From: a virus | Direction: 5' to 3' (one strand) | Virus record (IMG/VR): IMGVR_UViG_3300032249_000373 | Location: 1 to 24,260 of that record | DNA length: 24,260 nt | Notes under the pieces: generated by a model | The model's input: the letters and a program-made list of their open reading frames with translations, nothing else | Databases searched by the model: none | Told to the model about the DNA's origin: nothing | Made by a program: the position numbers and the translations under genes | In this document: piece by piece, positions 1 to 8,466 of the stretch | Position numbering within the stretch: the first letter of the stretch is position 1 | Layout of the letters: each line of letters begins with the position of its first letter

Positions 1-127
1 CTAACAATTCTTTTGCTCTTTCTGTATTGTTATATAGCCATGGATCGTCATCTGAGTTAATTGTTGTAAGGACGGAATCAAGTGCATTAATCATATCGTC
101 TAAATCTTCTTTAATATAACCTAACAT
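1..127 (-). CDS. Small hypothetical protein (runs off window start)
   Basis: Manual translation MLGYIKEDLDDMINALDSVL...; ATG overlaps the upstream stop (TAATG), preceded by GAGGAG. Confidence 0.7.
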   Translation of the reverse strand, partial: MLGYIKEDLDDMINALDSVLTTINSDDDPWLYNNTERAKELL

Positions 128-291
128 TAGTTCTCCTCATCCCACCAGTATTTGACTATTGTATTTAAAGTAGTGTGAATTGCACAATCACAATCCCCAC
201 CGTTCATATTTTCCATGTATTCAAGATGTTGTTCGTTGTCCATATACATCTCATTGACTAGTTCATCAATCGTTCTCATTGTTTGGGTCAT
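127..291 (-). CDS. 54-aa acidic hypothetical protein, leaderless
   Basis: Manual translation MTQTMRTIDELVNEMY...GGDCDCAIH...WWDEEN; ATG 6 nt after a TACAAT -10 box. Confidence 0.75.
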   Translation of the reverse strand: MTQTMRTIDELVNEMYMDNEQHLEYMENMNGGDCDCAIHTTLNTIVKYWWDEEN

Positions 292-297
292 ATATTA

Positions 298-326
298 ATT
301 GTAGCCGAAATCGTGGAAAAATGCAA
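298..326 (-). promoter_or_regulatory. Sigma70-type promoter TTGCAT-17-TACAAT
   Basis: Read directly on the minus strand; TTACGTAA palindrome (331-338) and CRP-like site (347-362) upstream. Confidence 0.7.
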
Positions 327-381
327 CTTCTTACGTAATCGTAAACTGTGTTTAATATCACATTGTCGAAAAATTTTCTTG

Positions 382-455
382 CGATTCCAACGGGACTTGA
401 ACCCGTAGCCTCCACCGTGACAGGGTGGCGATCTAACCAATTGATCTATGGAACC
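382..455 (-). tRNA. tRNA-Asp(GTC), CCA not encoded
   Basis: Acceptor stem GGTTCCA/TGGAATC, anticodon arm CCACC-CTGTCAC-GGTGG, T-arm ACGGG-TTCAAGT-CCCGT, discriminator G followed by CAA. Confidence 0.95.
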
Positions 456-458
456 TTA

Positions 459-487
459 CGAGCAGTTTTAATTCTTGCTCAGGAATT
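459..487 (-). ncRNA. Repeated H-type pseudoknot element, copy 1
   Basis: AAUUC-C-UGAGCA-A-GAAUU-AAAAC-UGCUCG; covaries with four other copies. Confidence 0.75.
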
Positions 488-494
488 TTTTTAG

Positions 495-1511
495 TTATGC
501 AATCTGCAAAGTGCTTTGCACAATCTTTAGCAAACGATTTTTTTCTGCGTTGATAGCAGGGTCAAAACCACTTGCTGATGCTAGGATAGATTCGTTAGAA
601 CCACCACGAGCAGAACGGTACCAGTCAAGGCGTTCTGTTAGTGCATTGAAAGCACCCCACGCATTACCAGCAATCATACCATTAAACTCGCCTGTGTAGA
701 TGTCGTTGATAACATCTACCTTGTTTTCCCATTTCTTGAAAGCACCCTTAGAATCTTTTTCTGGCTTAGGGTATGCAGCAAGAATGATGTCATTGAATTG
801 CTTAGCACTGATTTCTGTTTCAATCATAGCCTTAGCCATGAGGTCAAAAGAATCCATGTACTTATGAGCAAGACCAAGAGTCTCACGAGCAACGGCAACC
901 TTACCAGAAGCGGTCTGAGTGTGGCGAATCTTGAAAGATTGCTTGACACCATTCTTTTTCTTAGTTGTGTTTAGTGCAAGGTTAAGAGTGTTAGCGCACA
1001 CAACACGAACAGGTGTAATGCTTGCTTGAATAGCGATTGAGCCGTCATGTGATGTGTTGATAAGTAAATAAGTCTTTACCTTATCTGCAACACCGTTAGG
1101 GTCTAGGACAGTTTCACGCTCTAGTGCTAATGCACCGAATACGACACGACCACCCTTGATTGAGCCAGCCGTTTCCCAACGACCTCCACCGTCAAGAATG
1201 TTGTCACCGAATGAGAATAAATCTTCATTCTGCATAACATGATAACGCTCACCTACGACACCAAGAATGTCTGTCTGTGTGTTATCTGTTGGATTGGTAC
1301 GCAAAACATACTGGTATGCTTTGTCGCTTGTTAAGTGTGATGGGGTTTCCAAATCTTCCAGACGAACATTCCAACCGTTAAGGCTTGCAGCCTCTAACAT
1401 TTCTGATGTTGTTTTTTCTTCTGTAAATACGGTACCCAATCCATGCCAAGCAGGTTCACGAAATGATGCGAATGATGCCTTACCATTTTGTGATTCTAGT
1501 TCATGTGCCAT
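495..1511 (-). CDS. DUF932 / TIGR03299 phage-plasmid protein (338 aa)
   Basis: MAHELE...REPAWHGLG, LGVVGERYHVMQNE, WETAGSIKGGRVVF, NTSHDGS, TPVRVVCANTL motifs; start moved to 1511, behind an AAGGAG RBS. Confidence 0.9.
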   Translation of the reverse strand: MAHELESQNGKASFASFREPAWHGLGTVFTEEKTTSEMLEAASLNGWNVRLEDLETPSHLTSDKAYQYVLRTNPTDNTQTDILGVVGERYHVMQNEDLFSFGDNILDGGGRWETAGSIKGGRVVFGALALERETVLDPNGVADKVKTYLLINTSHDGSIAIQASITPVRVVCANTLNLALNTTKKKNGVKQSFKIRHTQTASGKVAVARETLGLAHKYMDSFDLMAKAMIETEISAKQFNDIILAAYPKPEKDSKGAFKKWENKVDVINDIYTGEFNGMIAGNAWGAFNALTERLDWYRSARGGSNESILASASGFDPAINAEKNRLLKIVQSTLQIA

Positions 1512-1542
1512 GAGTTTTCTCCTTTTTGTTGTTGTTAATACA

Positions 1543-1572
1543 ATCATACACGAATGGGCTGACAAATGCAAA
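1543..1572 (-). promoter_or_regulatory. Early promoter TGTCAG-N10-TATGAT with TTGCAT -35
   Basis: One of eight copies with identical spacing. Confidence 0.75.
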
Positions 1573-1687
1573 TCGGTATAGTTAGACATAGGGCAATTCG
1601 GACATTTTTCTTGTGATCTTAAACACATGCTCGTAACTTGACATTGACTGGTCAGCCGTGTCGAAAAATTTTTCAAGGGATTGAGCG

Positions 1688-1715
1688 GAGCAGTTTTTAA
1701 ACATGCTCAGGTTTA
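1688..1715 (-). ncRNA. Repeated H-type pseudoknot element, copy 2
   Basis: UAAAC-CU-GAGCA-U-GUUUA-AAAAC-UGCUC. Confidence 0.75.
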
Positions 1716-1729
1716 TTAGTAGCCCCCTA

Positions 1730-2152
1730 CTAAATATCTACTCTGTCAACACTGGATGACAGGTATGCAATTTCTTCACCATATGAAACTGAATCAAAAT
1801 CAATTTCATGAATTGCATTAATTGCTTCTTCTTCATTACGTGCATTGACTGTAACTGAATATTGAACTGTAACTTCCAATTCAAATTCTTTTGTTAATTC
1901 AAAACCGCAAATGTTTGCAATCTCTTCTGCAACACCTTCATCAAAAGTGCCATTCTCTAGCGCTTCTAAGGTCCACTCTTGCATTTCATTACGCATACGG
2001 TTGCGCTCTGCAGCCTCGCCGTATGAACGTTGCGTTACTTCTTGAATGTGCTTTTCTAATTGGTTAATACGATTTTTGTTTTCCACTAACTGTGACTCAA
2101 GAAATTCTCTTGTCATGTAGTGCTTTGCGGTTTCTGTTGTTACCTGGTCCAT
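1730..2152 (-). CDS. Acidic hypothetical protein with N-terminal coiled coil (140 aa)
   Basis: Full ORF with its own promoter and purine-rich RBS. Confidence 0.8.
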   Translation of the reverse strand: MDQVTTETAKHYMTREFLESQLVENKNRINQLEKHIQEVTQRSYGEAAERNRMRNEMQEWTLEALENGTFDEGVAEEIANICGFELTKEFELEVTVQYSVTVNARNEEEAINAIHEIDFDSVSYGEEIAYLSSSVDRVDI

Positions 2153-2184
2153 GGGGGCCCTCTTTCTGTTAGTTGTTTAATTTA

Positions 2185-2214
2185 ATTATACTGGGTACCA
2201 CTGACAAATGTCAA
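2185..2214 (-). promoter_or_regulatory. Consensus promoter TTGACA-18-TATAAT with TGTCAG in the spacer
   Basis: Read directly on the minus strand. Confidence 0.85.
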
Positions 2215-2228
2215 GATCCCCTTACGGG

Positions 2229-2255
2229 GAGTAGTTTATACACATACTCAGGTGT
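2229..2255 (-). ncRNA. Repeated H-type pseudoknot element, copy 3
   Basis: ACAC-CU-GAGUA-U-GUGU-AUAAAC-UACUC; compensatory C-G to U-A change in stem 2. Confidence 0.75.
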
Positions 2256-2310
2256 CTTGTCTCAGGCATACCTACGCATCATGGCATAGGGCTTAGCAGA
2301 AACAAATTAT

Positions 2311-2733
2311 TTAGAGATAACGAGATACCGCTTGATAGGTAGAAGTAGAAACTACTTCCTCGTCTGTCATCTTTAGAATACGAATAGCGTTAGAGATTTC
2401 CTCTTTCTGCTCACGATAGTTATAGACAGAAAATGTCTCAAAGTCTTTCTCAGGCTCTTTAGGCAAGTCCTTGTCTGAAACTGTTAGGTCAAAGTCAATG
2501 TTAAGACTATTGTTCCATGAGCGATAGTTAGTGCGGAAGTTTTCTGCCTTACTGATGTTAGCAAGAGCATAGTCCTGCACTTCCTTCTGCCATGCCTTGC
2601 GTAGCAATTCGTATCGTGCTTCGTTGGCTTCTTGTGATGTGTAGTCAAGTTCTAGTTTATCTAGTGACTTTTGTAGTGCCTCAATTACTCGTTGAGTAGG
2701 TATCTTTACTGAGATTGCTTTTTGTCTTGCCAT
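2311..2733 (-). CDS. Hypothetical phage protein (140 aa)
   Basis: Full ORF, purine-rich leader, same strand as neighbours. Confidence 0.8.
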   Translation of the reverse strand: MARQKAISVKIPTQRVIEALQKSLDKLELDYTSQEANEARYELLRKAWQKEVQDYALANISKAENFRTNYRSWNNSLNIDFDLTVSDKDLPKEPEKDFETFSVYNYREQKEEISNAIRILKMTDEEVVSTSTYQAVSRYL

Positions 2734-2781
2734 CTTTTATTTTCTCTTTTCTTTGGTGGTTTAATTGTTAGGGGGTTGTGT

Positions 2782-2812
2782 TGAGCAGTTTTAGTAGTCA
2801 TGCTCAGGACTA
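2782..2812 (-). ncRNA. Repeated H-type pseudoknot element, copy 4
   Basis: UAGUC-C-UGAGCA-U-GACUA-CUAAAAC-UGCUCA. Confidence 0.75.
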
Positions 2813-2838
2813 AGTTACTATCTAACTGGCTTGTTAGA

Positions 2839-3003
2839 TTACTTAGCCGTCCAAGTTGTGTATCGGTGTGAGCCATTGACATCTAACTTTACACGAACAT
2901 TACCATTTGGTTGTGGGTTAATCTCTACGATTGTTCCTGTGACCTTTGACTTCTGTGTTGTGTATGTGTCGCCTACCTTGTATGTTGCTGTTGCTACTGA
3001 CAT
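2839..3003 (-). CDS. 54-aa small beta protein (SH3/KOW-like pattern)
   Basis: MSVATATYKVGDTY...GTIVEI...VRVKLD; start set behind AAGGAG RBS. Confidence 0.75.
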   Translation of the reverse strand: MSVATATYKVGDTYTTQKSKVTGTIVEINPQPNGNVRVKLDVNGSHRYTTWTAK

Positions 3004-3044
3004 TGTGTTTCTCCTTTTGTTTAGTGTGTTTTGCTTATGTATTA

Positions 3045-3073
3045 AGTGTAACATTTCCTACTGACATTATCAA
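3045..3073 (-). promoter_or_regulatory. Early promoter TTGATA-17-TACACT with TGTCAG box
   Basis: Same spacing as the other copies. Confidence 0.75.
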
Positions 3074-3114
3074 CATTTTTCCTAGATTTCTCACTATTTG
3101 AGACGCTTAGGGTA

Positions 3115-3130
3115 TGTGATTTATGTCACA
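3115..3130. promoter_or_regulatory. Perfect CRP/GlxR-type site TGTGA-N6-TCACA
   Basis: TGTGATTTATGTCACA; one of nine such sites. Confidence 0.75.
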
Positions 3131-3146
3131 TTGGACAGATTGAGGG

Positions 3147-3212
3147 TTATTGTCCACCTGCTATGATTAGTATGATTAGTAACCCTATTACTGTTGCTAT
3201 TACCATTTCCAT
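3147..3212 (-). CDS. 21-aa hydrophobic single-TM peptide
   Basis: MEMVIATVIGLLIILIIAGGQ; GAGGA RBS overlapping the gp88 stop. Confidence 0.6.
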   Translation of the reverse strand: MEMVIATVIGLLIILIIAGGQ

Positions 3213-3218
3213 TTTTCC

Positions 3219-3941
3219 TCATTTCTTAGTTGCAGAAAAAATTATGTCACTCTTAGAGTATACACACAATGAGCAAGAAACGCAAGCCGAGCCCTTTGTG
3301 CTTATGAGTGGTATCTGCTTATTGTTTTCAGGACACTTAGCCCCAGGTCTATTGGTCAATGCCTTTAAGTCTGCTTGTCCTATTAGAAAGTTTTTAGCAA
3401 GGTATGCTAATTTAATTCCATGATCTGTTTTTAATTCCACACCTGTATCTTTATTCTCGCTATCTGTGGAATAGTATAGTGAAAGATTTTCAATACCCTT
3501 CAACATTAGGGCAGCACTCTTAACTCTCGTGTATACCCAGAATTGAATATCAGGATTATTAAGGATGACATGCTTCCATGCGAATGTATAAGTATCGTTA
3601 AAGAAATCGCCGTCCCAATGAATACGGAATAGCATAGGGGCTTCACGCTTTACGCACTCAGCCTTGAAGTCTTTTATCATATCTTCAAGCAATGCTTCAA
3701 TGGTATCGTGATCAGCGTCCTTAATTAATTCCCAATTGTGCAATAAGTTTTTCTTTACTGTTGGGAATACCTTTTCCAATTTGCCTGCATAGCAAACACT
3801 CTCGCAGACAGACGTTGCACCAGGACATGAATAGTTTTTTCCTGCTGGTAATCCGAAAGTGTTAGCGATACTTGCTTGTTTTCCATTTGGTGTAACTGCA
3901 TTTGCTACTTTCCTATCTTTGCTTCTTAGTAGTTTAGTCAT
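3219..3941 (-). CDS. Gp88-like (Gene product 88 family) Cys-rich protein
   Basis: FGLPAG...SCPGATSVCESVCYA, FRIHWDGDFF, FWVYTR, KCPE...CVSCSLC motifs; likely start MTKLLRSKDRK at 3941. Confidence 0.8.
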   Translation of the reverse strand: MTKLLRSKDRKVANAVTPNGKQASIANTFGLPAGKNYSCPGATSVCESVCYAGKLEKVFPTVKKNLLHNWELIKDADHDTIEALLEDMIKDFKAECVKREAPMLFRIHWDGDFFNDTYTFAWKHVILNNPDIQFWVYTRVKSAALMLKGIENLSLYYSTDSENKDTGVELKTDHGIKLAYLAKNFLIGQADLKALTNRPGAKCPENNKQIPLISTKGSACVSCSLCVYSKSDIIFSATKK

Positions 3942-3946
3942 GGTGG

Positions 3947-4087
3947 CTACTCTCTTTCTTTCTTTAATTCTAACATAAGGGACTGACATTTTTTTCTATC
4001 GTATTTTTTCTTATTGGGTACGGCAGAGGCAGCGTTAGACCTACGTAATTCCATAAGCCTACGTAATTCCTCTTTGGTTTTCTTCAT
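3947..4087 (-). CDS. 46-aa very basic leaderless peptide
   Basis: MKKTKEELRRLMELRRSNAASAVPNKKKYDRKKCQSLMLELKKERE; ATG 5 nt after the TAAGAT -10. Confidence 0.65.
   Translation of the reverse strand: MKKTKEELRRLMELRRSNAASAVPNKKKYDRKKCQSLMLELKKERE
3967..3988 (-). promoter_or_regulatory. Early promoter TGTCAG-N10-TAGAAT for gp88
   Basis: Motif spacing conserved; extended -10 TGn. Confidence 0.7.
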
Positions 4088-4092
4088 ACTTA

Positions 4093-4121
4093 ATCTTAAC
4101 AGAATCCTGGGAAAATGTCAA
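4093..4121 (-). promoter_or_regulatory. Promoter TTGACA-17-TAAGAT
   Basis: Read directly; TTACGTAA palindrome just upstream (4125-4132). Confidence 0.75.
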
Positions 4122-4194
4122 ATCTTACGTAAACACGACACGCCCGACTGCGTTCGAAAATTTTGTGCGGGGAAGCACACAAAATCTTTTTTAG

Positions 4195-4437
4195 TTAATC
4201 AGCATCCTCAGTAAAAACATACAACGGAATTAAATCAGTGTAAGAATACTGAGTAACTTCCTTTTCACCAAATTCGTTTTCGGTTTGGATGTCATAGTTA
4301 TCTCCTGTTGAATCACTTTCAATAAAAATAACTTCAACAATGTCTTCACCGATCTTGATTAAATCACCAAGCATAACCTGGTCTGGTGTTAAGTTATCAG
4401 CGTGTAATAATTCCATAGAATTCATTGTAACAGTCAT
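4195..4437 (-). CDS. Acidic hypothetical protein (~80 aa)
   Basis: ORF track; start moved to the ATG coupled to the upstream stop (TAA-A-ATG). Confidence 0.7.
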   Translation of the reverse strand: MTVTMNSMELLHADNLTPDQVMLGDLIKIGEDIVEVIFIESDSTGDNYDIQTENEFGEKEVTQYSYTDLIPLYVFTEDAD

Positions 4438-4438
4438 T

Positions 4439-4504
4439 TTAACGGGTCCCCGCAAGTGCTATAAAAAACAAAAGAAAACCTGCAACGATAAAGAATTCCA
4501 CCAT
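4439..4504 (-). CDS. 21-aa hydrophobic single-TM peptide
   Basis: MVEFFIVAGFLLFFIALAGTR; TAATG overlap upstream, exactly fills the gap. Confidence 0.6.
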   Translation of the reverse strand: MVEFFIVAGFLLFFIALAGTR

Positions 4505-4824
4505 TATTCAAGCCCCAATCCTAATTCAAATCCTAGGTCCTCGTTATAGTCTTCAACGTTTTCAGGCAACCATGGATGCAAGTGGTGTTGCTCAATGATA
4601 GCCCACACTGGAGCGCAGGTTTCATTCTTGTAGTAAATACCGTCTGGCATCTCAATAGTTTCATCCCACAATTCCTGGTGTGCAAAATCAATTGCAGCAA
4701 TGCATACTGGTACCATGCTTAGTGGTACTGGTGGATAGTGATTACCCTGCAAGTGATAACCAATAGCCTGTTCAAGGCTTATGTCAATGTTTTCTGCTAG
4801 ATCCATCGCTGTGTTGTATCCCAT
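4504..4824 (-). CDS. Conserved phage hypothetical protein (HLQGNHYPPVP motif)
   Basis: Full ORF, translationally coupled on both sides. Confidence 0.8.
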   Translation of the reverse strand: MGYNTAMDLAENIDISLEQAIGYHLQGNHYPPVPLSMVPVCIAAIDFAHQELWDETIEMPDGIYYKNETCAPVWAIIEQHHLHPWLPENVEDYNEDLGFELGLGLE

Positions 4825-5042
4825 TATCGTGTTACCACCATTCCTGTTTTGTAAAAAGTTTTTGTGTGCATCTTGCCTGAAGGTTCAGAAAGATTAACTG
4901 TTGCGTATTCGTTAGCAAATCCGTGGTCAATAAACTTTTGATAAACTTCCACGGCAGATAAAGCATCTGAGTAGCGACCAACCCATTTAGGTGTAGGGGC
5001 TGAGTCATAGGTAACTGTTACTGAGTATAGGTATTCGTTCAT
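4824..5042 (-). CDS. Hypothetical protein (72 aa)
   Basis: TAATG coupling, AAGGAG RBS. Confidence 0.8.
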   Translation of the reverse strand: MNEYLYSVTVTYDSAPTPKWVGRYSDALSAVEVYQKFIDHGFANEYATVNLSEPSGKMHTKTFYKTGMVVTR

Positions 5043-5218
5043 TATGCATTCTCCTTATAAAATTCGTTCATGATACTTTCAGCATACCATTCGGTGTATT
5101 CAGTTTCAAGCGACACGCCCTTAGCGCACTCACAAAAATCTGTATCGTATTCACCATGATTATTGCCCCAAAATAGGACACCCTCATCATAGCAATCCAT
5201 GCAATCCCAAGTGTTCAT
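5042..5218 (-). CDS. 58-aa CxxC...CxC zinc-finger-like protein
   Basis: Manual translation MNTWDCMDCYDEGVLFWG...DFCECAKG... Confidence 0.75.
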   Translation of the reverse strand: MNTWDCMDCYDEGVLFWGNNHGEYDTDFCECAKGVSLETEYTEWYAESIMNEFYKENA

Positions 5219-5222
5219 TTAT

Positions 5223-5453
5223 TTACCCCTTTACCTTTACTGCGACTACCGCATAAAAATCATTCCACCGCTTTGGTGAAACTGAGTATCCTGTATAAGT
5301 AGGCTTAACAAGAATACGATACGCTTGGTATTCATTTCCATACCATGCATCATGAGGCGTTGCCTCTTTAATTTCTCCCTCAATGCCACGAGACTTTGAG
5401 CGATACTGTTTTCCTACGAGTAGGCTATCTATTGTATAGGTTAGTGCTGACAT
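5223..5453 (-). CDS. Hypothetical protein (76 aa)
   Basis: GAAAGG RBS; first gene after a promoter. Confidence 0.8.
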   Translation of the reverse strand: MSALTYTIDSLLVGKQYRSKSRGIEGEIKEATPHDAWYGNEYQAYRILVKPTYTGYSVSPKRWNDFYAVVAVKVKG

Positions 5454-5496
5454 TATGTCCGCCTTTCTTTTTCTTTAATTAACTTATTACTATGTA

Positions 5497-5518
5497 ATCC
5501 TATCATGGCAGGCTGACA
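5497..5518 (-). promoter_or_regulatory. Early promoter TGTCAG-N10-TAGGAT
   Basis: Conserved motif and spacing. Confidence 0.7.
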
Positions 5519-5567
5519 AATGTATAGTTACTAGCGAGTAATCTTAAATACTGAGACGCTCAACCTA

Positions 5568-5601
5568 TGTGATAAATCTCACAAATCTAGCCTGTGGATA
5601 A
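5568..5601. promoter_or_regulatory. CRP-type site (5568-5583) and DnaA box (5593-5601)
   Basis: TGTGATAAATCTCACA; TGTGGATAA is the reverse complement of TTATCCACA. Confidence 0.7.
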
Positions 5602-5638
5602 CCCTGTGGAGGACACGCCCGAACGGGTCGAAAAAATT

Positions 5639-5667
5639 TAAGCAGTTTTAGATCATGCTTAGGATTT
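5639..5667 (-). ncRNA. Repeated H-type pseudoknot element, copy 5
   Basis: AAAUC-C-UAAGCA-U-GAUCU-AAAAC-UGCUUA; compensatory G-C to A-U change in stem 2, one A.C mismatch in stem 1. Confidence 0.7.
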
Positions 5668-5685
5668 TGCTTAGCCTCTGCAGTG

Positions 5686-5871
5686 CTAAGACTTTGTTAA
5701 AATTCCATCAACGCAAGCATCATAGAATTTATTTTCATCAAATCTAGGATTATCAGAAGCAAACCATTCGCTAAATTCAAAAACTAATTGGTCAAAATCA
5801 TTTGAGTCAATGTCATCAACAAATTTATTTAGAATTTTTGCAGTTTCTACATAGTCTTTACGTGTCATCAT
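5686..5871 (-). CDS. Conserved phage hypothetical protein (MTRKDY...DNPRFD..KF..AC)
   Basis: Recognisable small phage family pattern; coupled start. Confidence 0.8.
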   Translation of the reverse strand: MMTRKDYVETAKILNKFVDDIDSNDFDQLVFEFSEWFASDNPRFDENKFYDACVDGILTKS

Positions 5872-6024
5872 TTAGTAAGTTTCCACTTTCTCTACATCTG
5901 CGACATTATCTAAACGCCATGTGTTGTTTACAATTTCAATAACTTTTTCAAATGAGTGGGCCTCATACGCAGGGTATGAGACCTCACCATTTACATTACG
6001 CACTGAAAGTTTTACGCCATTCAT
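5872..6024 (-). CDS. 50-aa hypothetical protein
   Basis: Manual translation MNGVKLSVRNVNGEVSYPAYEAHSF...; TAATG overlap. Confidence 0.7.
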   Translation of the reverse strand: MNGVKLSVRNVNGEVSYPAYEAHSFEKVIEIVNNTWRLDNVADVEKVETY

Positions 6025-6230
6025 TAGTCGGCCACCTTTAGAATTGCATAGGACCCGCCTGCGTTAATTTCATCTAGTGCAGATTTAATTCGTGGTGCAA
6101 GTAAATCCTTGAGCATTGACTCAAGCATGATTACACGCATTGACTCCTCTAATGCTAACAGTTGTGCACCGATTGGATGAGTTTCGTCTACTTCTGTCAC
6201 GAAGTGTAGTGAGTGAGGTACTTTTACCAT
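6024..6230 (-). CDS. Hypothetical protein (68 aa)
   Basis: AGGA RBS; operon context. Confidence 0.75.
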   Translation of the reverse strand: MVKVPHSLHFVTEVDETHPIGAQLLALEESMRVIMLESMLKDLLAPRIKSALDEINAGGSYAILKVAD

Positions 6231-6248
6231 TTTTAGTTTTCCTATTCT

Positions 6249-6446
6249 TTAGTTTGAGTTAGTGAGTGTACGAGTGCCACGAATTGTGCCACTAATTCCA
6301 AGAGAGTCGCAAGCGACTTTAACAGATACGCCAACAGGTAATTGTGTTGGGTATTGTGATACGAATTGAGCAACCTGACCTCGTGATGAGAAGTTGATTT
6401 TTTTGGTAGAACCTGAAAAGGTTTCTAGTGTAACAGTGTAAGTCAT
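6249..6446 (-). CDS. Hypothetical protein (65 aa)
   Basis: GAAAGGA RBS downstream of a promoter. Confidence 0.75.
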   Translation of the reverse strand: MTYTVTLETFSGSTKKINFSSRGQVAQFVSQYPTQLPVGVSVKVACDSLGISGTIRGTRTLTNSN

Positions 6447-6478
6447 TGAGTGACTTCCTTTCTTTAAGTGATAAGACT

Positions 6479-6544
6479 ATCCTATCACGGGGGGCTGACA
6501 AATTGGGGCACTTATTCGCTAGGCTCACTGTGATACTGGTCACA
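6479..6544 (-). promoter_or_regulatory. Early promoter TGTCAG-N10-TAGGAT with perfect CRP-type site (6529-6544)
   Basis: Read directly from the sequence. Confidence 0.7.
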
Positions 6545-6597
6545 TTTATTTGCTAGGCTCATTGCCTTGTCTGTCCTTATTTAATTGTTATACTAGA

Positions 6598-6691
6598 AGT
6601 ATAGCAAAGAAATGTCAAAAAGTCAAATCCTAACACGGCGTGTCGCATGTGAGTTACACCACATCTATCCTGTGGATAAGCCTGTGGATAA
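6598..6691 (-). promoter_or_regulatory. Promoter TTGACT-17-TATACT, CRP-like site (6648-6663), tandem DnaA boxes (6671-6679, 6683-6691)
   Basis: Read directly from the sequence. Confidence 0.7.
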
Positions 6692-6704
6692 CTTTTTTCG
6701 AAAA

Positions 6705-6730
6705 TTTTTCAGGGGATCAATCCTGAAAAA
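6705..6730 (-). terminator. Probable intrinsic terminator hairpin
   Basis: 9-bp stem TTTTTCAGG/CCTGAAAAA followed by TTTT on the minus strand, just after the last gene of the operon. Confidence 0.5.
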
Positions 6731-6737
6731 CTTTTTA

Positions 6738-6797
6738 CTAACTATGAATTGCAATAACAAAAGCAAAACAAGTAATTGCGATTAGAATAACTAACAT
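6738..6797 (-). CDS. 19-aa hydrophobic peptide
   Basis: MLVILIAITCFAFVIAIHS; GAGGA RBS and TAATG overlap. Confidence 0.55.
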   Translation of the reverse strand: MLVILIAITCFAFVIAIHS

Positions 6798-6886
6798 TAG
6801 TTTTCCTCAATTTCATTTAGTAAATCCCAAAGTATTGGCTCTAACTCTAACGCAACTGCATCAAGTTTTTCTTGAAGTGTTTTCAT
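6797..6886 (-). CDS. 29-aa acidic helical peptide
   Basis: MKTLQEKLDAVALELEPILWDLLNEIEEN; GAGGA RBS, abuts the upstream stop. Confidence 0.65.
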   Translation of the reverse strand: MKTLQEKLDAVALELEPILWDLLNEIEEN

Positions 6887-7030
6887 TTATTCCTCAATCT
6901 GTCTTTGATAGTAGTCAATTACATGAAAGTCTAATTGTCTCTCAAGTGGCATAGCCTTTAGCCATGAATAGGCAGACTCAAAATCATCTGCCTCTACATC
7001 TACATACAACTCAAAATTAAATACTGGCAT
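6887..7030 (-). CDS. 47-aa hypothetical protein
   Basis: MPVFNFELYVDVEADDFESAYSWL...; AAGGAGGT RBS, TAATG overlap. Confidence 0.75.
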   Translation of the reverse strand: MPVFNFELYVDVEADDFESAYSWLKAMPLERQLDFHVIDYYQRQIEE

Positions 7031-7194
7031 TATTTAACCTCCTTGTATAAAAAGTCCCAAGCCTTACGGCATAACACGATAGATTTGCAGTTATCGCAAC
7101 AGATAACTCCATGAGGGTTAAGGTCTAGGTCATAGACATCTATTGTGGTAGTAACCGCACCACACACGGATTTAATTGGTACATAGGTACTCAT
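7030..7194 (-). CDS. 54-aa Cys-rich (zinc-ribbon-like) protein
   Basis: MSTYVPIKSVCGAVTT...VICCDNCKSIVLC...; ATGA overlap. Confidence 0.75.
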   Translation of the reverse strand: MSTYVPIKSVCGAVTTTIDVYDLDLNPHGVICCDNCKSIVLCRKAWDFLYKEVK

Positions 7195-7373
7195 CTTGTA
7201 AGTCCTTCCTTTCCATAAGTGTTAATAAAATCAGGGAGAGCCATAACGCCCTTGTAGTCTTTACATCTAGGGCAAAATCTATTCCACCCGTCAAATAGTG
7301 TTATGCAGAAAGCGCAGATGTTATCCATAGCGCATAAGCCTTGCTCATCTATAAATTGCATAGTGTCGTTCAT
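7191..7373 (-). CDS. 60-aa CxxC-CxxC zinc-ribbon protein
   Basis: CAFC...CPRC; start moved to the ATGA overlap at 7373. Confidence 0.75.
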   Translation of the reverse strand: MNDTMQFIDEQGLCAMDNICAFCITLFDGWNRFCPRCKDYKGVMALPDFINTYGKEGLTR

Positions 7374-7546
7374 GCTGACACCTTCCAATCTGTCCAAGCA
7401 GGGAATTGTTCTGGGTCACTATCATAGTAGTAACGCTCAATGTTGCTATCGCAAATCATGCATAGTGTGAATTGCTCATCTCCAATTTCTGAGATAGCAG
7501 AAACAAGAGGCTCGTGCCACTTGCATAGTGTGTTTAGTGTAGTCAT
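7370..7546 (-). CDS. 58-aa CxxH...CxxC zinc-finger-like protein
   Basis: MTTLNTLCKWHEP...LCMICDSNIERYY...; GAAAGGTAGG RBS. Confidence 0.75.
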   Translation of the reverse strand: MTTLNTLCKWHEPLVSAISEIGDEQFTLCMICDSNIERYYYDSDPEQFPAWTDWKVSA

Positions 7547-7601
7547 TTTGACCTACCTTTCTTTAAGGGATTTCTGTACCCTTGTTTTTCTTTATACTGT
7601 A

Positions 7602-7820
7602 AGTATAGCAGGGGGGTCTGACAAATTGGAGGGGACAAAAGGTATCAAAACGGACATTGTGAGATTAGTCACATGTGTTTCATGTCACATAGGTTATCCA
7701 CACATGAATGGTCAGACCTGTGGATAACTTTTTTCGACATCCCCTGTGACGGAAATCACAAAAATACTTTACCGACACGCCCGAAAAACAGGCTAATTTG
7801 TCAGTGGTAGGTGCTAGAAT
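7602..7820. promoter_or_regulatory. Divergent promoter pair with three CRP-type sites, two DnaA boxes and a GACACGCCCGA box
   Basis: Minus TGTCAG-N10-TATACT (7602-7623); plus TGTCAG-N10-TAGAAT (7799-7820); CRP 7658-7673, 7674-7689, 7745-7760; DnaA 7694-7702, 7719-7727. Confidence 0.75.
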
Positions 7821-7856
7821 ACTATGTATAAAGATTAACAAAGAAAGGTGTTCCCA

Positions 7857-8003
7857 ATGAATACACTAGAAAGACTAAGAGCAGAGCAACAGGCTCGCTA
7901 CGCTAAAGAGCGTGAGGCTAACAAGGCTAAGATTGAGGCTATGTTTGCCAATAACTCTCGCCCACTAAACAATGCCCACCTATTAGGAAAGGAGGAAAAC
8001 TAA
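7857..8003 (+). CDS. 48-aa helical hypothetical protein
   Basis: MNTLERLRAEQQARYAKEREANKAKIEAMF...; GAAAGGTG RBS. Confidence 0.75.
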   Translation: MNTLERLRAEQQARYAKEREANKAKIEAMFANNSRPLNNAHLLGKEEN

Positions 8004-8167
8004 TGAAAACCAATTTTGAGATTACACAAGAGATTAACACTCTTGCTACTAAGCACTATGGTGATGTATCACTGTCATGGGTTTGGGGTTGTGCACAAGC
8101 ACTACTAACCGCACAACAGTTAGAGTTAATTCTAAACATGCTACTAGAGAAAGAGGCTAGTCAATGA
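8003..8167 (+). CDS. 54-aa hypothetical protein
   Basis: MKTNFEITQEINTLATKHYGD...; AAGGAGG RBS, TAATG overlap. Confidence 0.75.
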   Translation: MKTNFEITQEINTLATKHYGDVSLSWVWGCAQALLTAQQLELILNMLLEKEASQ

Positions 8168-8262
8168 GCGCAATGTACGCACACACTTGTGAAACTTGTG
8201 GGGATACAGGTATCATCATTTTTGATAAAAACGAGACCCGCATAGACCCTTGCAAATGTTAG
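8164..8262 (+). CDS. 32-aa CxxC...CxC zinc-finger peptide
   Basis: MSAMYAHTCETCGDTGIIIFDKNETRIDPCKC; ATGA overlap. Confidence 0.7.
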   Translation: MSAMYAHTCETCGDTGIIIFDKNETRIDPCKC

Positions 8263-8348
8263 AATAAATCGGTGGCACTAGTGTTAGAATTATTGACGGC
8301 ACTAGTGCTAAGATCTTTGCACGCACCCCACTAGTGTGCTCACTAATT
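8257..8348. repeat. Tandem repeats carrying the palindrome CACTAGTG
   Basis: CACTAGTG at 8276, 8300 and 8329; TGTTAGAAT...GGCACTAGTG duplicated. Confidence 0.7.
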
Positions 8349-8466
8349 AAATTATTTATTCTACACAAAAGTATGTATCATACACTTATACAAAATATTC
8401 AGATTTTGGCAAAAGTGGTTTTTATAAAATTTTTCAGATTTTGACGGGGTAGGGTATAATAATCAT

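Follow-up and report, generated by a model that had tools for sequence, protein, structure and literature searches.

The first 24,260 nucleotides of the virus genome IMGVR_UViG_3300032249_000373 (IMG/VR) carry an array of palindromic boxes, TGTGA-N6-TCACA, located upstream of most early promoters of this phage. A Crp/GlxR-type protein of the host probably activates these promoters from the boxes in a class I-like way. The boxes are real, are confined to early intergenic modules and have been kept by purifying selection throughout a large phage family. Their register is 10-11 bp; they work with two kinds of core promoter and match the CRP consensus, including the positions that were unused in finding them.

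The 24.3-kb stretch (hereafter the window) is the start of a genome of 105,870 bp; the GC content is 36.6%. The ends of the genome overlap by 119 bp, and it is therefore either circularly assembled or terminally repeated. Its genes include those for a portal, a prohead protease, tail fibres and six tRNAs, as well as one for a WhiB-family protein, which scores above the Pfam cut-off. Since the presence of WhiB is taken to mark a phage as one that infects Actinobacteria (PMC10202952, PMC10914622), the host is likely to be an actinobacterium; from WhiB, the GC content and the lake-type relatives of the phage, we infer that it is a low-GC freshwater member of this group.

The nearest cultured relatives are the Streptomyces BE-cluster phages (Samistivirus, approx. 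130 kb), together with the Rhodococcus phages Grayson and Peregrin. Identity to the BE-cluster phages is 45% for the portal, 53% for the DUF932 protein and 40% for WhiB. In the BE-cluster and Rhodococcus relatives the DUF932 gene lies on the minus strand, 1-2.5 kb from the left end, and is placed inside a long terminal repeat, as it occurs at two places per record; after it comes a series of small genes that point leftward. Positions 1-7550 of the window are arranged alike, and this synteny with the Streptomyces BE-cluster phages is the sole basis on which the block is called early. Positions 1-8400 had no match among the deposited phages (megablast).

A box was defined as TGTGA-N6-TCACA, either perfect or with at most one mismatch. 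The nine sites listed in an earlier note on this DNA, five perfect and four with one mismatch, were all found where it had placed them (Table 1). Dinucleotide shuffles of the window contained on average 0.01 perfect boxes and 1.40 with at most one mismatch, and in 100 shuffles the observed counts were never reached; the boxes are thus far more frequent than expected by chance. All nine are located within 2,086 nt of early intergenic DNA, for which a first-order Markov null gave 0.08 boxes (maximum 2 in 2,000 trials), i.e. an enrichment of approximately 100-fold.

The whole genome contains 6 perfect and 6 one-mismatch boxes. Ten of the 12 form a single 8-kb block between 105456 and 7760, across the junction, and the other two (54015 and 97427, one mismatch each) are located in the replication/late part. 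The earlier note had assigned all the boxes to promoter modules, and their confinement to the early promoter region is borne out; an equal density in coding and late regions, named there as the contrary outcome, fails because 10 of the 12 boxes lie between 105456 and 7760.

The identification of the motif as a CRP/GlxR consensus was also correct, since it equals the pattern of CRP, Mycobacterium tuberculosis CRP (Mtb-CRP) and GlxR (PMC10187061, PMC7999487, PMC4117774); mycobacterial CRP and corynebacterial GlxR both bind the consensus TGTGA-N6-TCACA (PMC4117774, PMC7999487). A total of 448 distinct boxes were compiled from the phage and 80 relatives. Position 6, unused in the selection, is T in a fraction of 0.55 and A in 0.03 of these boxes, and positions 8/9, likewise unused, are T/A in 0.57. 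The extended Escherichia coli CRP consensus, TGTGATCTAGATCACA, has a T after TGTGA and a central TA, and both preferences therefore fit it.

The mismatches of the one-mismatch boxes among the 448 fall at position 5 (115 boxes), 1 (55), 4 (18), 2 (14) and 3 (6). G2, T3 and G4 are thus seldom mismatched, and G2 and G4 are the bases of the half-site that residues R180, E181 and R185 of CAP contact (PMC10187061). The arms of the box are invariant and do not covary, which argues for a protein site rather than an RNA hairpin. The response to cAMP differs between actinobacterial Crp proteins and E. coli CRP; tight binding of GlxR requires cAMP, the mycobacterial protein behaves otherwise, and GlxR acts as both activator and repressor (PMC10187061).

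Twelve early promoters were identified by eye (11 in the window and the one served by the tenth box, genome 105456), and nine of them have a box. They represent two kinds. In eight promoters (window 1543-7820) an invariant TGTCAG precedes the -10 hexamer, TAnnnT, by exactly 10 nt, usually with an extended -10 TG; elsewhere in the genome the pattern TGTCAG-N10-TAnnnT occurs as one coincidence only, at a start codon, and the class is kept in relatives. The four further promoters are of the plain TTGNNN-N17-TAnnnT kind, and two of these are probably leaderless. In the two probable leaderless genes (window 289-303; genome ~105409) the ATG lies 6-7 nt after the -10 hexamer. Leaderless genes are typical of actinobacterial hosts. 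A counterpart of the TGTCAG box, TGTC(C), is found at a similar place in the BE-cluster phage NootNoot. A generic sigma-70 scan of positions 1-8400 gave no overall enrichment (28 matches vs 24 expected), and the top matches alone coincide with the module promoters.

Start sites were deduced from the -10 hexamers (taken as -12 to -7) and from leaderless ATGs. All nine site centres of the earlier note (-63.5 to -86.5) were reproduced by hand from the -10 hexamers. Every box centre lies between approximately -53 and -86, upstream of the -35, and none is placed over the core promoter. For the window alone the best period was 10.5 bp (Rayleigh R 0.73), a value reached by 113 of 5,000 uniform nulls when periods of 7-14 were scanned.

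A search of IMG/VR with the DUF932 protein yielded 394 related stretches, of which the best 80 (84-96% identity) were used as relatives. Where the early block is present in these, both the boxes and the TGTCAG promoters are kept. In 449 distinct contexts of TGTCAG-type promoters the box centres peak at -64.5 (47), -74.5 (27) and -85.5 (39), and approximately 79% of the boxes between -60 and -110 sit in these three bands, which represent 23% of the positions.

The promoters were then grouped by the protein that they drive, as an earlier clustering on downstream DNA had merged unrelated modules via shared ribosome-binding leaders. Orthologues of the gene for a 69-amino-acid (aa) protein have the box at -85.5 in 12 contexts and at -74.5 in 7, and those of the 65-aa gene at -64.5 in 34 contexts and at -74.5 in 2; of 39 distinct contexts orthologous to the promoter of the 6529 box, 34 keep the box at -64.5. 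In the case of the 57-aa gene we found either a pair at -86.5/-70.5 or one box at -64.5, -74.5 or -76.5. The box therefore moves by whole turns between orthologous promoters, which indicates a constraint on the helix face. When each group-position pair of the relatives was counted once, none of 5,000 uniform nulls reached the periodicity (best period 9.5-10.5 bp), the pairs being not fully independent as modules may be paralogous.

The register is not restricted to one kind of core promoter. Canonical promoters of the relatives that have no TGTCAG share it (-53.5, -63.5/-64.5, -74.5 and approximately -84), and in the -53.5 class the start site is anchored by a leaderless ATG. In a divergent relative (L086) the boxes remain and the TGTCAG promoters are gone, from which it follows that the box is tied to the -10 and the polymerase and not to the TGTCAG element. 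The helical phasing proposed in the earlier note is thus upheld across the 80 relatives at a spacing of approximately 10-11 bp, although its register is shifted and one box (-70.5) is out of phase; the deduced centres do not coincide with the class I positions of -61.5/-71.5/-82.5 cited there, but fall 2-3 bp upstream of them as counted from the -10.

Table 1. Boxes, promoters and genes of the early block (window coordinates unless stated otherwise; strand in brackets).
Feature	Position	Remarks
Box, one mismatch (TGTGTTTAATATCACA)	347..362	Centre ~-63.5 of leftward TTGCAT-N17-TACAAT promoter
Sigma-70-like promoter	298..326 (-)	-35 TTGCAT 326..321, -10 TACAAT 303..298; arrangement recurs in relatives; transcript probably leaderless, because of ATG at 291
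DUF932 gene	495-1676	Driven by promoter 1543..1564 (-)
Promoter TGTCAG-N10-TATGAT	1543..1564 (-)	Drives DUF932 gene
Box, one mismatch	1612..1627	Centre ~-83.5 of DUF932-gene promoter
Promoter TGTCAG-N10-TACACT	3045..3066 (-)	-35 TTGATA at 3073..3068, just upstream
Box, perfect	3115..3130	Centre ~-84.5
Possible degenerate box TGTGC-N6-GCACA	4164..4179	~-85.5 of TTGACA-N17-TAAGAT promoter (4121..4093)
Promoter TGTCAG-N10-TAGGAT	5497..5518 (-)	Extended -10 TG
Box, perfect	5568..5583	Centre ~-85.5; DnaA box TTATCCACA (5593-5601) 9 nt further out
Gene	6249-6446	Driven by promoter 6479..6500 (-)
Promoter TGTCAG-N10-TAGGAT	6479..6500 (-)	
Box, perfect	6529..6544	Centre ~-64.5
Canonical promoter TTGACT-N17-TATACT	6598..6626 (-)	10/12 matches, TG before -10, without TGTCAG box
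Box, one mismatch	6648..6663	Centre ~-64.5 of TTGACT-N17-TATACT promoter; DnaA boxes 6671, 6683 adjoin
Promoter TGTCAG-N10-TATACT	7602..7623 (-)	Leftward arm of divergent control region
Box, perfect	7658..7673	Centre ~-70.5; out-of-phase half of abutting pair with 7674 box
Box, one mismatch	7674..7689	Centre ~-86.5; in-phase half of abutting pair with 7658 box
Box, perfect	7745..7760	Centre ~-74.5 of rightward (plus-strand) promoter
Promoter TGTCAG-N10-TAGAAT	7799..7820 (+)	Rightward
Tenth box, perfect, outside window	genome 105456	Centre ~-53.5; 10 nt before TTGTAA-N17-TATAAT promoter, whose ATG starts 7 nt past the -10 (leaderless)

Boxes of this type were also found in other phages. IMG/VR was scanned for two perfect boxes 1-30 nt apart, with the reversed palindrome as a control. 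The scan identified at least 117 stretches vs 54 for the control (about twofold or more by raw count), and four or more perfect boxes were present in 46% of the box matches listed vs 7% of the control matches. Many of the tandem-box matches belong to the same phage family (GC 36-40%, TGTCAG promoters, shared proteins). Two others, G003 (47.7 kb, GC 59%) and G009 (39 kb, GC 45%, complete), encode WhiB and have their boxes clustered in a few kb, and neither has an early gene in common with the window phage. Four of the G003 boxes precede a -35 by 9-10 nt, with centres at approximately -52.5 to -54.5, which is the geometry of the tenth box of the window phage (genome 105456). That actinophages without a common lineage have the same box in the same geometry speaks for a host factor used by all of them, and a Crp helix-turn-helix (HTH) domain was not found in G003 or G009. 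A further stretch, G011, was rejected as an independent lineage, as it has early genes in common with the window phage. Within G003, the 170 bp at 43686-43852 (L266) contain five CRP-type boxes that alternate with GGTTGCTCGAGAGCCTCTC repeats, which has the appearance of a dense regulatory hub.

We propose that the boxes are predicted sites for a dimeric regulator of the CRP family, the likeliest candidate being the Crp/GlxR-type protein of the actinobacterial host. Placed on one face of the helix at approximately -53.5, -64.5, -74.5 or -85.5, upstream of the early promoters, this regulator would help the host sigma-A RNA polymerase to start transcription, as in class I activation; it may do so through contact with the polymerase, through a bend that brings the DNA further upstream closer to it, or through both. 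Class I-like action (PMC10187061) is that of an activator located upstream, which touches RNA polymerase or bends DNA towards it, and the positions between -53 and -86, the register of approximately 10.5 bp and the use of two kinds of core promoter fit such an activator. The effect of the box is presumably activation, and it may report cAMP or the energy state of the host. The wiring of early transcription to host cAMP-CRP, as deduced in the earlier note, is supported in part, and carbon or energy status would be a candidate signal.

Several observations weigh against activation by the host Crp. The identity of the binder is itself deduced, with the presence and the specificity of a host Crp being assumed, and the bare pattern also occurs in iteron-like arrays of other phages, so that a pattern match alone cannot name the binder. 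A box within the limit of one mismatch is missing from three of the 12 early promoters, among them 4121..4093 with its possible degenerate box. The -35 is not weaker at box promoters, its mean match to the consensus being 2.57 with a box vs 2.61 without (p 0.8), although a 6/6 -35 occurs at no box-bearing promoter vs 41 promoters without a box. The box at -70.5 (7658) is out of phase, as are minority classes in the relatives (-69.5/-70.5, -76.5 and approximately -102.5); in nearly all contexts of the largest orthologous groups, however, the -69.5/-70.5 box directly adjoins a second box at -85.5/-86.5, of which it is the inner partner. Compared with the class I optima of E. coli the register is displaced upstream by 2-3 bp; those optima need not hold for an actinobacterial polymerase, and the counts from relatives are not phylogenetically independent. 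Box enrichment was absent in Streptomyces phage NootNoot and Rhodococcus phage Grayson, though their hosts have Crp; the equivalent modules of NootNoot contain TGTC-N7-GACA palindromes and GGACA repeats, and the boxes thus characterise the freshwater lineage and not the whole phage family. In view of the shifted register and of the -35 being no weaker, the promoters are described here as working like class I, and not as proven members of that class.

It is conceivable, if unlikely, that the boxes are bound by a dimeric protein of unrecognised fold, encoded by the phage or delivered by the virion, which serves as an early autoregulator or timing switch, the likeness to CRP sites being coincidental or convergent. 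The open reading frames (ORFs) of the early region are nearly all orphans, which leaves room for a novel regulator; nevertheless, 20 early ORFs tested against Pfam and PHROG gave no match to an HTH, DNA-binding or regulator family (most ORFs being orphans), and the phage proteins gave no match to PF13545 (Crp HTH) or PF00027 (cNMP-binding). A PF00325 match was rejected as weak (12.6 bits) and unrelated, the protein concerned, an HTH protein of 56 aa encoded at 68.6 kb, not being a Crp. The different palindrome and repeats found in NootNoot within the same modular layout are as expected of co-evolving regulator-site pairs, and the cultured relatives with Crp-containing hosts do without CRP boxes, but G003 and G009 carry the same boxes without sharing early genes with the window phage. 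Iteron-like TGTGAA-N4-TTCACA arrays in other phages also favour a phage regulator, whereas the half-site, the 6-bp spacer, the unselected spacer preferences and the mismatch pattern of the boxes are all CRP-like. Phage repressors usually act over the core promoter, and the boxes, at -53 to -86, do not overlie it. Furthermore, an immediate-early promoter fires before any phage protein is synthesised and cannot depend on one, except on a protein that is injected.

The arrays just mentioned, the richest of the scan, are found in low-GC, unrelated contigs, L129 (IMGVR_UViG_3300045988_163471), L168 and L110, where perfect copies of TGTGAA-N4-TTCACA number up to 17 within 7 kb and are spaced by approximately 29 bp in an iteron-like manner. 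WhiB was searched for in L129 and L168 and was not found. These contigs were discounted as support for the CRP-type boxes, as their arrays are of the iteron type and apparently serve another protein.

A quite improbable alternative is that a host CRP-family protein binds the boxes for something other than simple activation, namely gating or pausing by host state, a DnaA-linked architectural or origin-like hub, or the soaking up of Crp during replication. DnaA boxes (5593, 6671, 6683, 7694 and 7719) adjoin several of the CRP boxes, and the divergent region at 7560-7850 packs three boxes together with three DnaA-box copies; on the other hand, the 10-11 bp register to the -10, seen at many promoters, points to a stereospecific link with RNA polymerase that neither titration nor an origin would need. 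The strength of the -35 is no lower where a box is present, which means that strict dependence on an activator is not evident, and GlxR both activates and represses (PMC10187061), but sites upstream of -50 are poor for steric repression.

Finally, it is extremely improbable that the palindromes are RNA hairpins for termination or processing in read-through transcripts, or functionless features of chance or composition: the boxes do follow the end of one gene and precede the promoter of the next, hence would be inside read-through RNA, and they could fold into a stem of 5 bp with a loop of 6 nt, but the half-site is invariant without covariation (the ground on which the hairpin reading was rejected), the mismatch of a one-mismatch box disrupts the pairing and is not compensated, a terminator would need a stronger stem, the enrichment over the null is approximately 100-fold, and the position of the box is conserved relative to the downstream -10 and not to the upstream stop codon.

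Other sequence elements were observed in the early modules. The genome contains nine perfect DnaA boxes, TTATCCACA, five of which adjoin CRP-type boxes in early modules (5593-5601, 6671-6691 and 7694-7727); three others cluster near 102.3 kb (genome 102351-102404), possibly at an origin. The element AATGTCCG-W4-TGTCC is located between box and promoter at 1590-1606 and 7640-7655 (minus strand), and also in intergenic regions of L006. It is the reverse complement of the NootNoot repeat CGGACA-N4-CGGACA and, unlike the CRP-type box, is conserved across the wider phage family. Two promoters with a box at -84.5/-85.5 have the motif (G/A)AGCGTCTCA at approximately -66 (3099-3107 and 5552-5560), strongly conserved in relatives. 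The A/T tracts TCGAAAAA(TTTT), which might be UP-like or bending elements, are placed at the upstream edge of the modules (366, 1661, 5628, 6694 and 7730), often beside GACACGCC.

Directly upstream of the -35 of the canonical promoters 326..298 and 4121..4093 lies the palindrome TTACGTAA (331-338 and 4125-4132), and related repeats, ACGTAATTCC, are found at 4040-4075. The element at 4164..4179 has two symmetric mismatches with its GTG-N8-CAC core intact; it is possibly a degenerate box, or equally a terminator hairpin/stem. Direct repeats GAGCCTAGC(A/G)AATAA are present on both sides of the 6529 box (6509-6564), and the promoter 6626..6598 may make a 16-codon ORF or a small RNA.

With regard to the host, a scan of genome contigs with the phage WhiB gave a single match, a 4-kb contig (L088, CAYZIG010000046.1) that encodes a WhiB protein 67% identical to that of the phage and belongs to a 0.7-Mb 'Candidatus Saccharibacteria' metagenome-assembled genome (MAG) without Crp. 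It was rejected as a host clue, since the contig is probably a mis-binned phage fragment.

The closest mechanistic parallel is offered by the class I CRP promoters of E. coli (lac type), in which activation occurs from approximately -61.5, -71.5, -82.5 and -92.5. As in the phage, these have a 16-bp palindrome upstream of the -35, at positions one helical turn apart, usually with one box per promoter and tandem boxes at some. In contrast, the phage register (-53.5/-64.5/-74.5/-85.5) is 2-3 bp further from the -10, the phage cores have an extended -10 (TGn), often with the invariant TGTCAG at -28 to -23, and the -35 is no weaker where a box is present; moreover, the presumed host is an actinobacterium rather than an enterobacterium, and at the phage promoters activation and the class I contact of AR1 with the alpha-CTD are putative.

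The regulons of M. tuberculosis Rv3676 and Corynebacterium glutamicum GlxR share the consensus TGTGA-N6-TCACA (PMC7999487, PMC4117774) and, via WhiB, the presumed host phylum, and for M. tuberculosis there are recorded sites whose distance from the start site is approximately -58 to -70 (PMC4117774, Table 1). These regulons are chromosomal and their sites mostly imperfect, whereas here a virulent-looking phage has a perfect or near-perfect array on its early promoters. The early modules of the Streptomyces BE-cluster phages (Samistivirus, e.g. NootNoot) are of a homologous lineage, with a leftward array of small genes, every one of them equipped with a terminator, repeats placed upstream, an extended -10 and, in the spacer, a TGTC-type box; they differ from those of the window phage in having TGTC-N7-GACA and GGACA repeats in place of CRP-type boxes. 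IHF, acting at Mu Pe and lambda pL, is a case of a host DNA-bending/global factor used by phage promoters. There, too, the site of a host nucleoid/global regulator lies upstream of an early phage promoter and its effect depends on phase, but the factor and motif are different, and those promoters have one or two sites vs a box on most early promoters here. Full-text literature searches identified no paper describing arrays of CRP boxes on actinophage early promoters.

Early promoters of phages are usually viewed as strong, constitutive sites for the host polymerase. In this widespread family of lake phages, most early promoters have a conserved, phased site that is apparently intended for a global regulator of the host. 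We suggest, tentatively and with considerable doubt, that an abundant family of large lytic freshwater actinophages and at least two other lineages of WhiB phages have independently put most of their early promoters under host Crp/cAMP by means of helically phased boxes, often beside DnaA boxes, so that the launch of infection reads the energy/replication state of the host. If this is true, phages without a lysogeny module, infecting slow-growing oligotrophic hosts, would possess a built-in 'wait or go' switch. If the host Crp does bind the boxes, the natural spacing variants (-53.5 to -85.5) would offer material on the geometry of activation with an actinobacterial RNA polymerase, and host physiology would be sensed at the first step of infection, which bears on phages in starved, slow-growing plankton.

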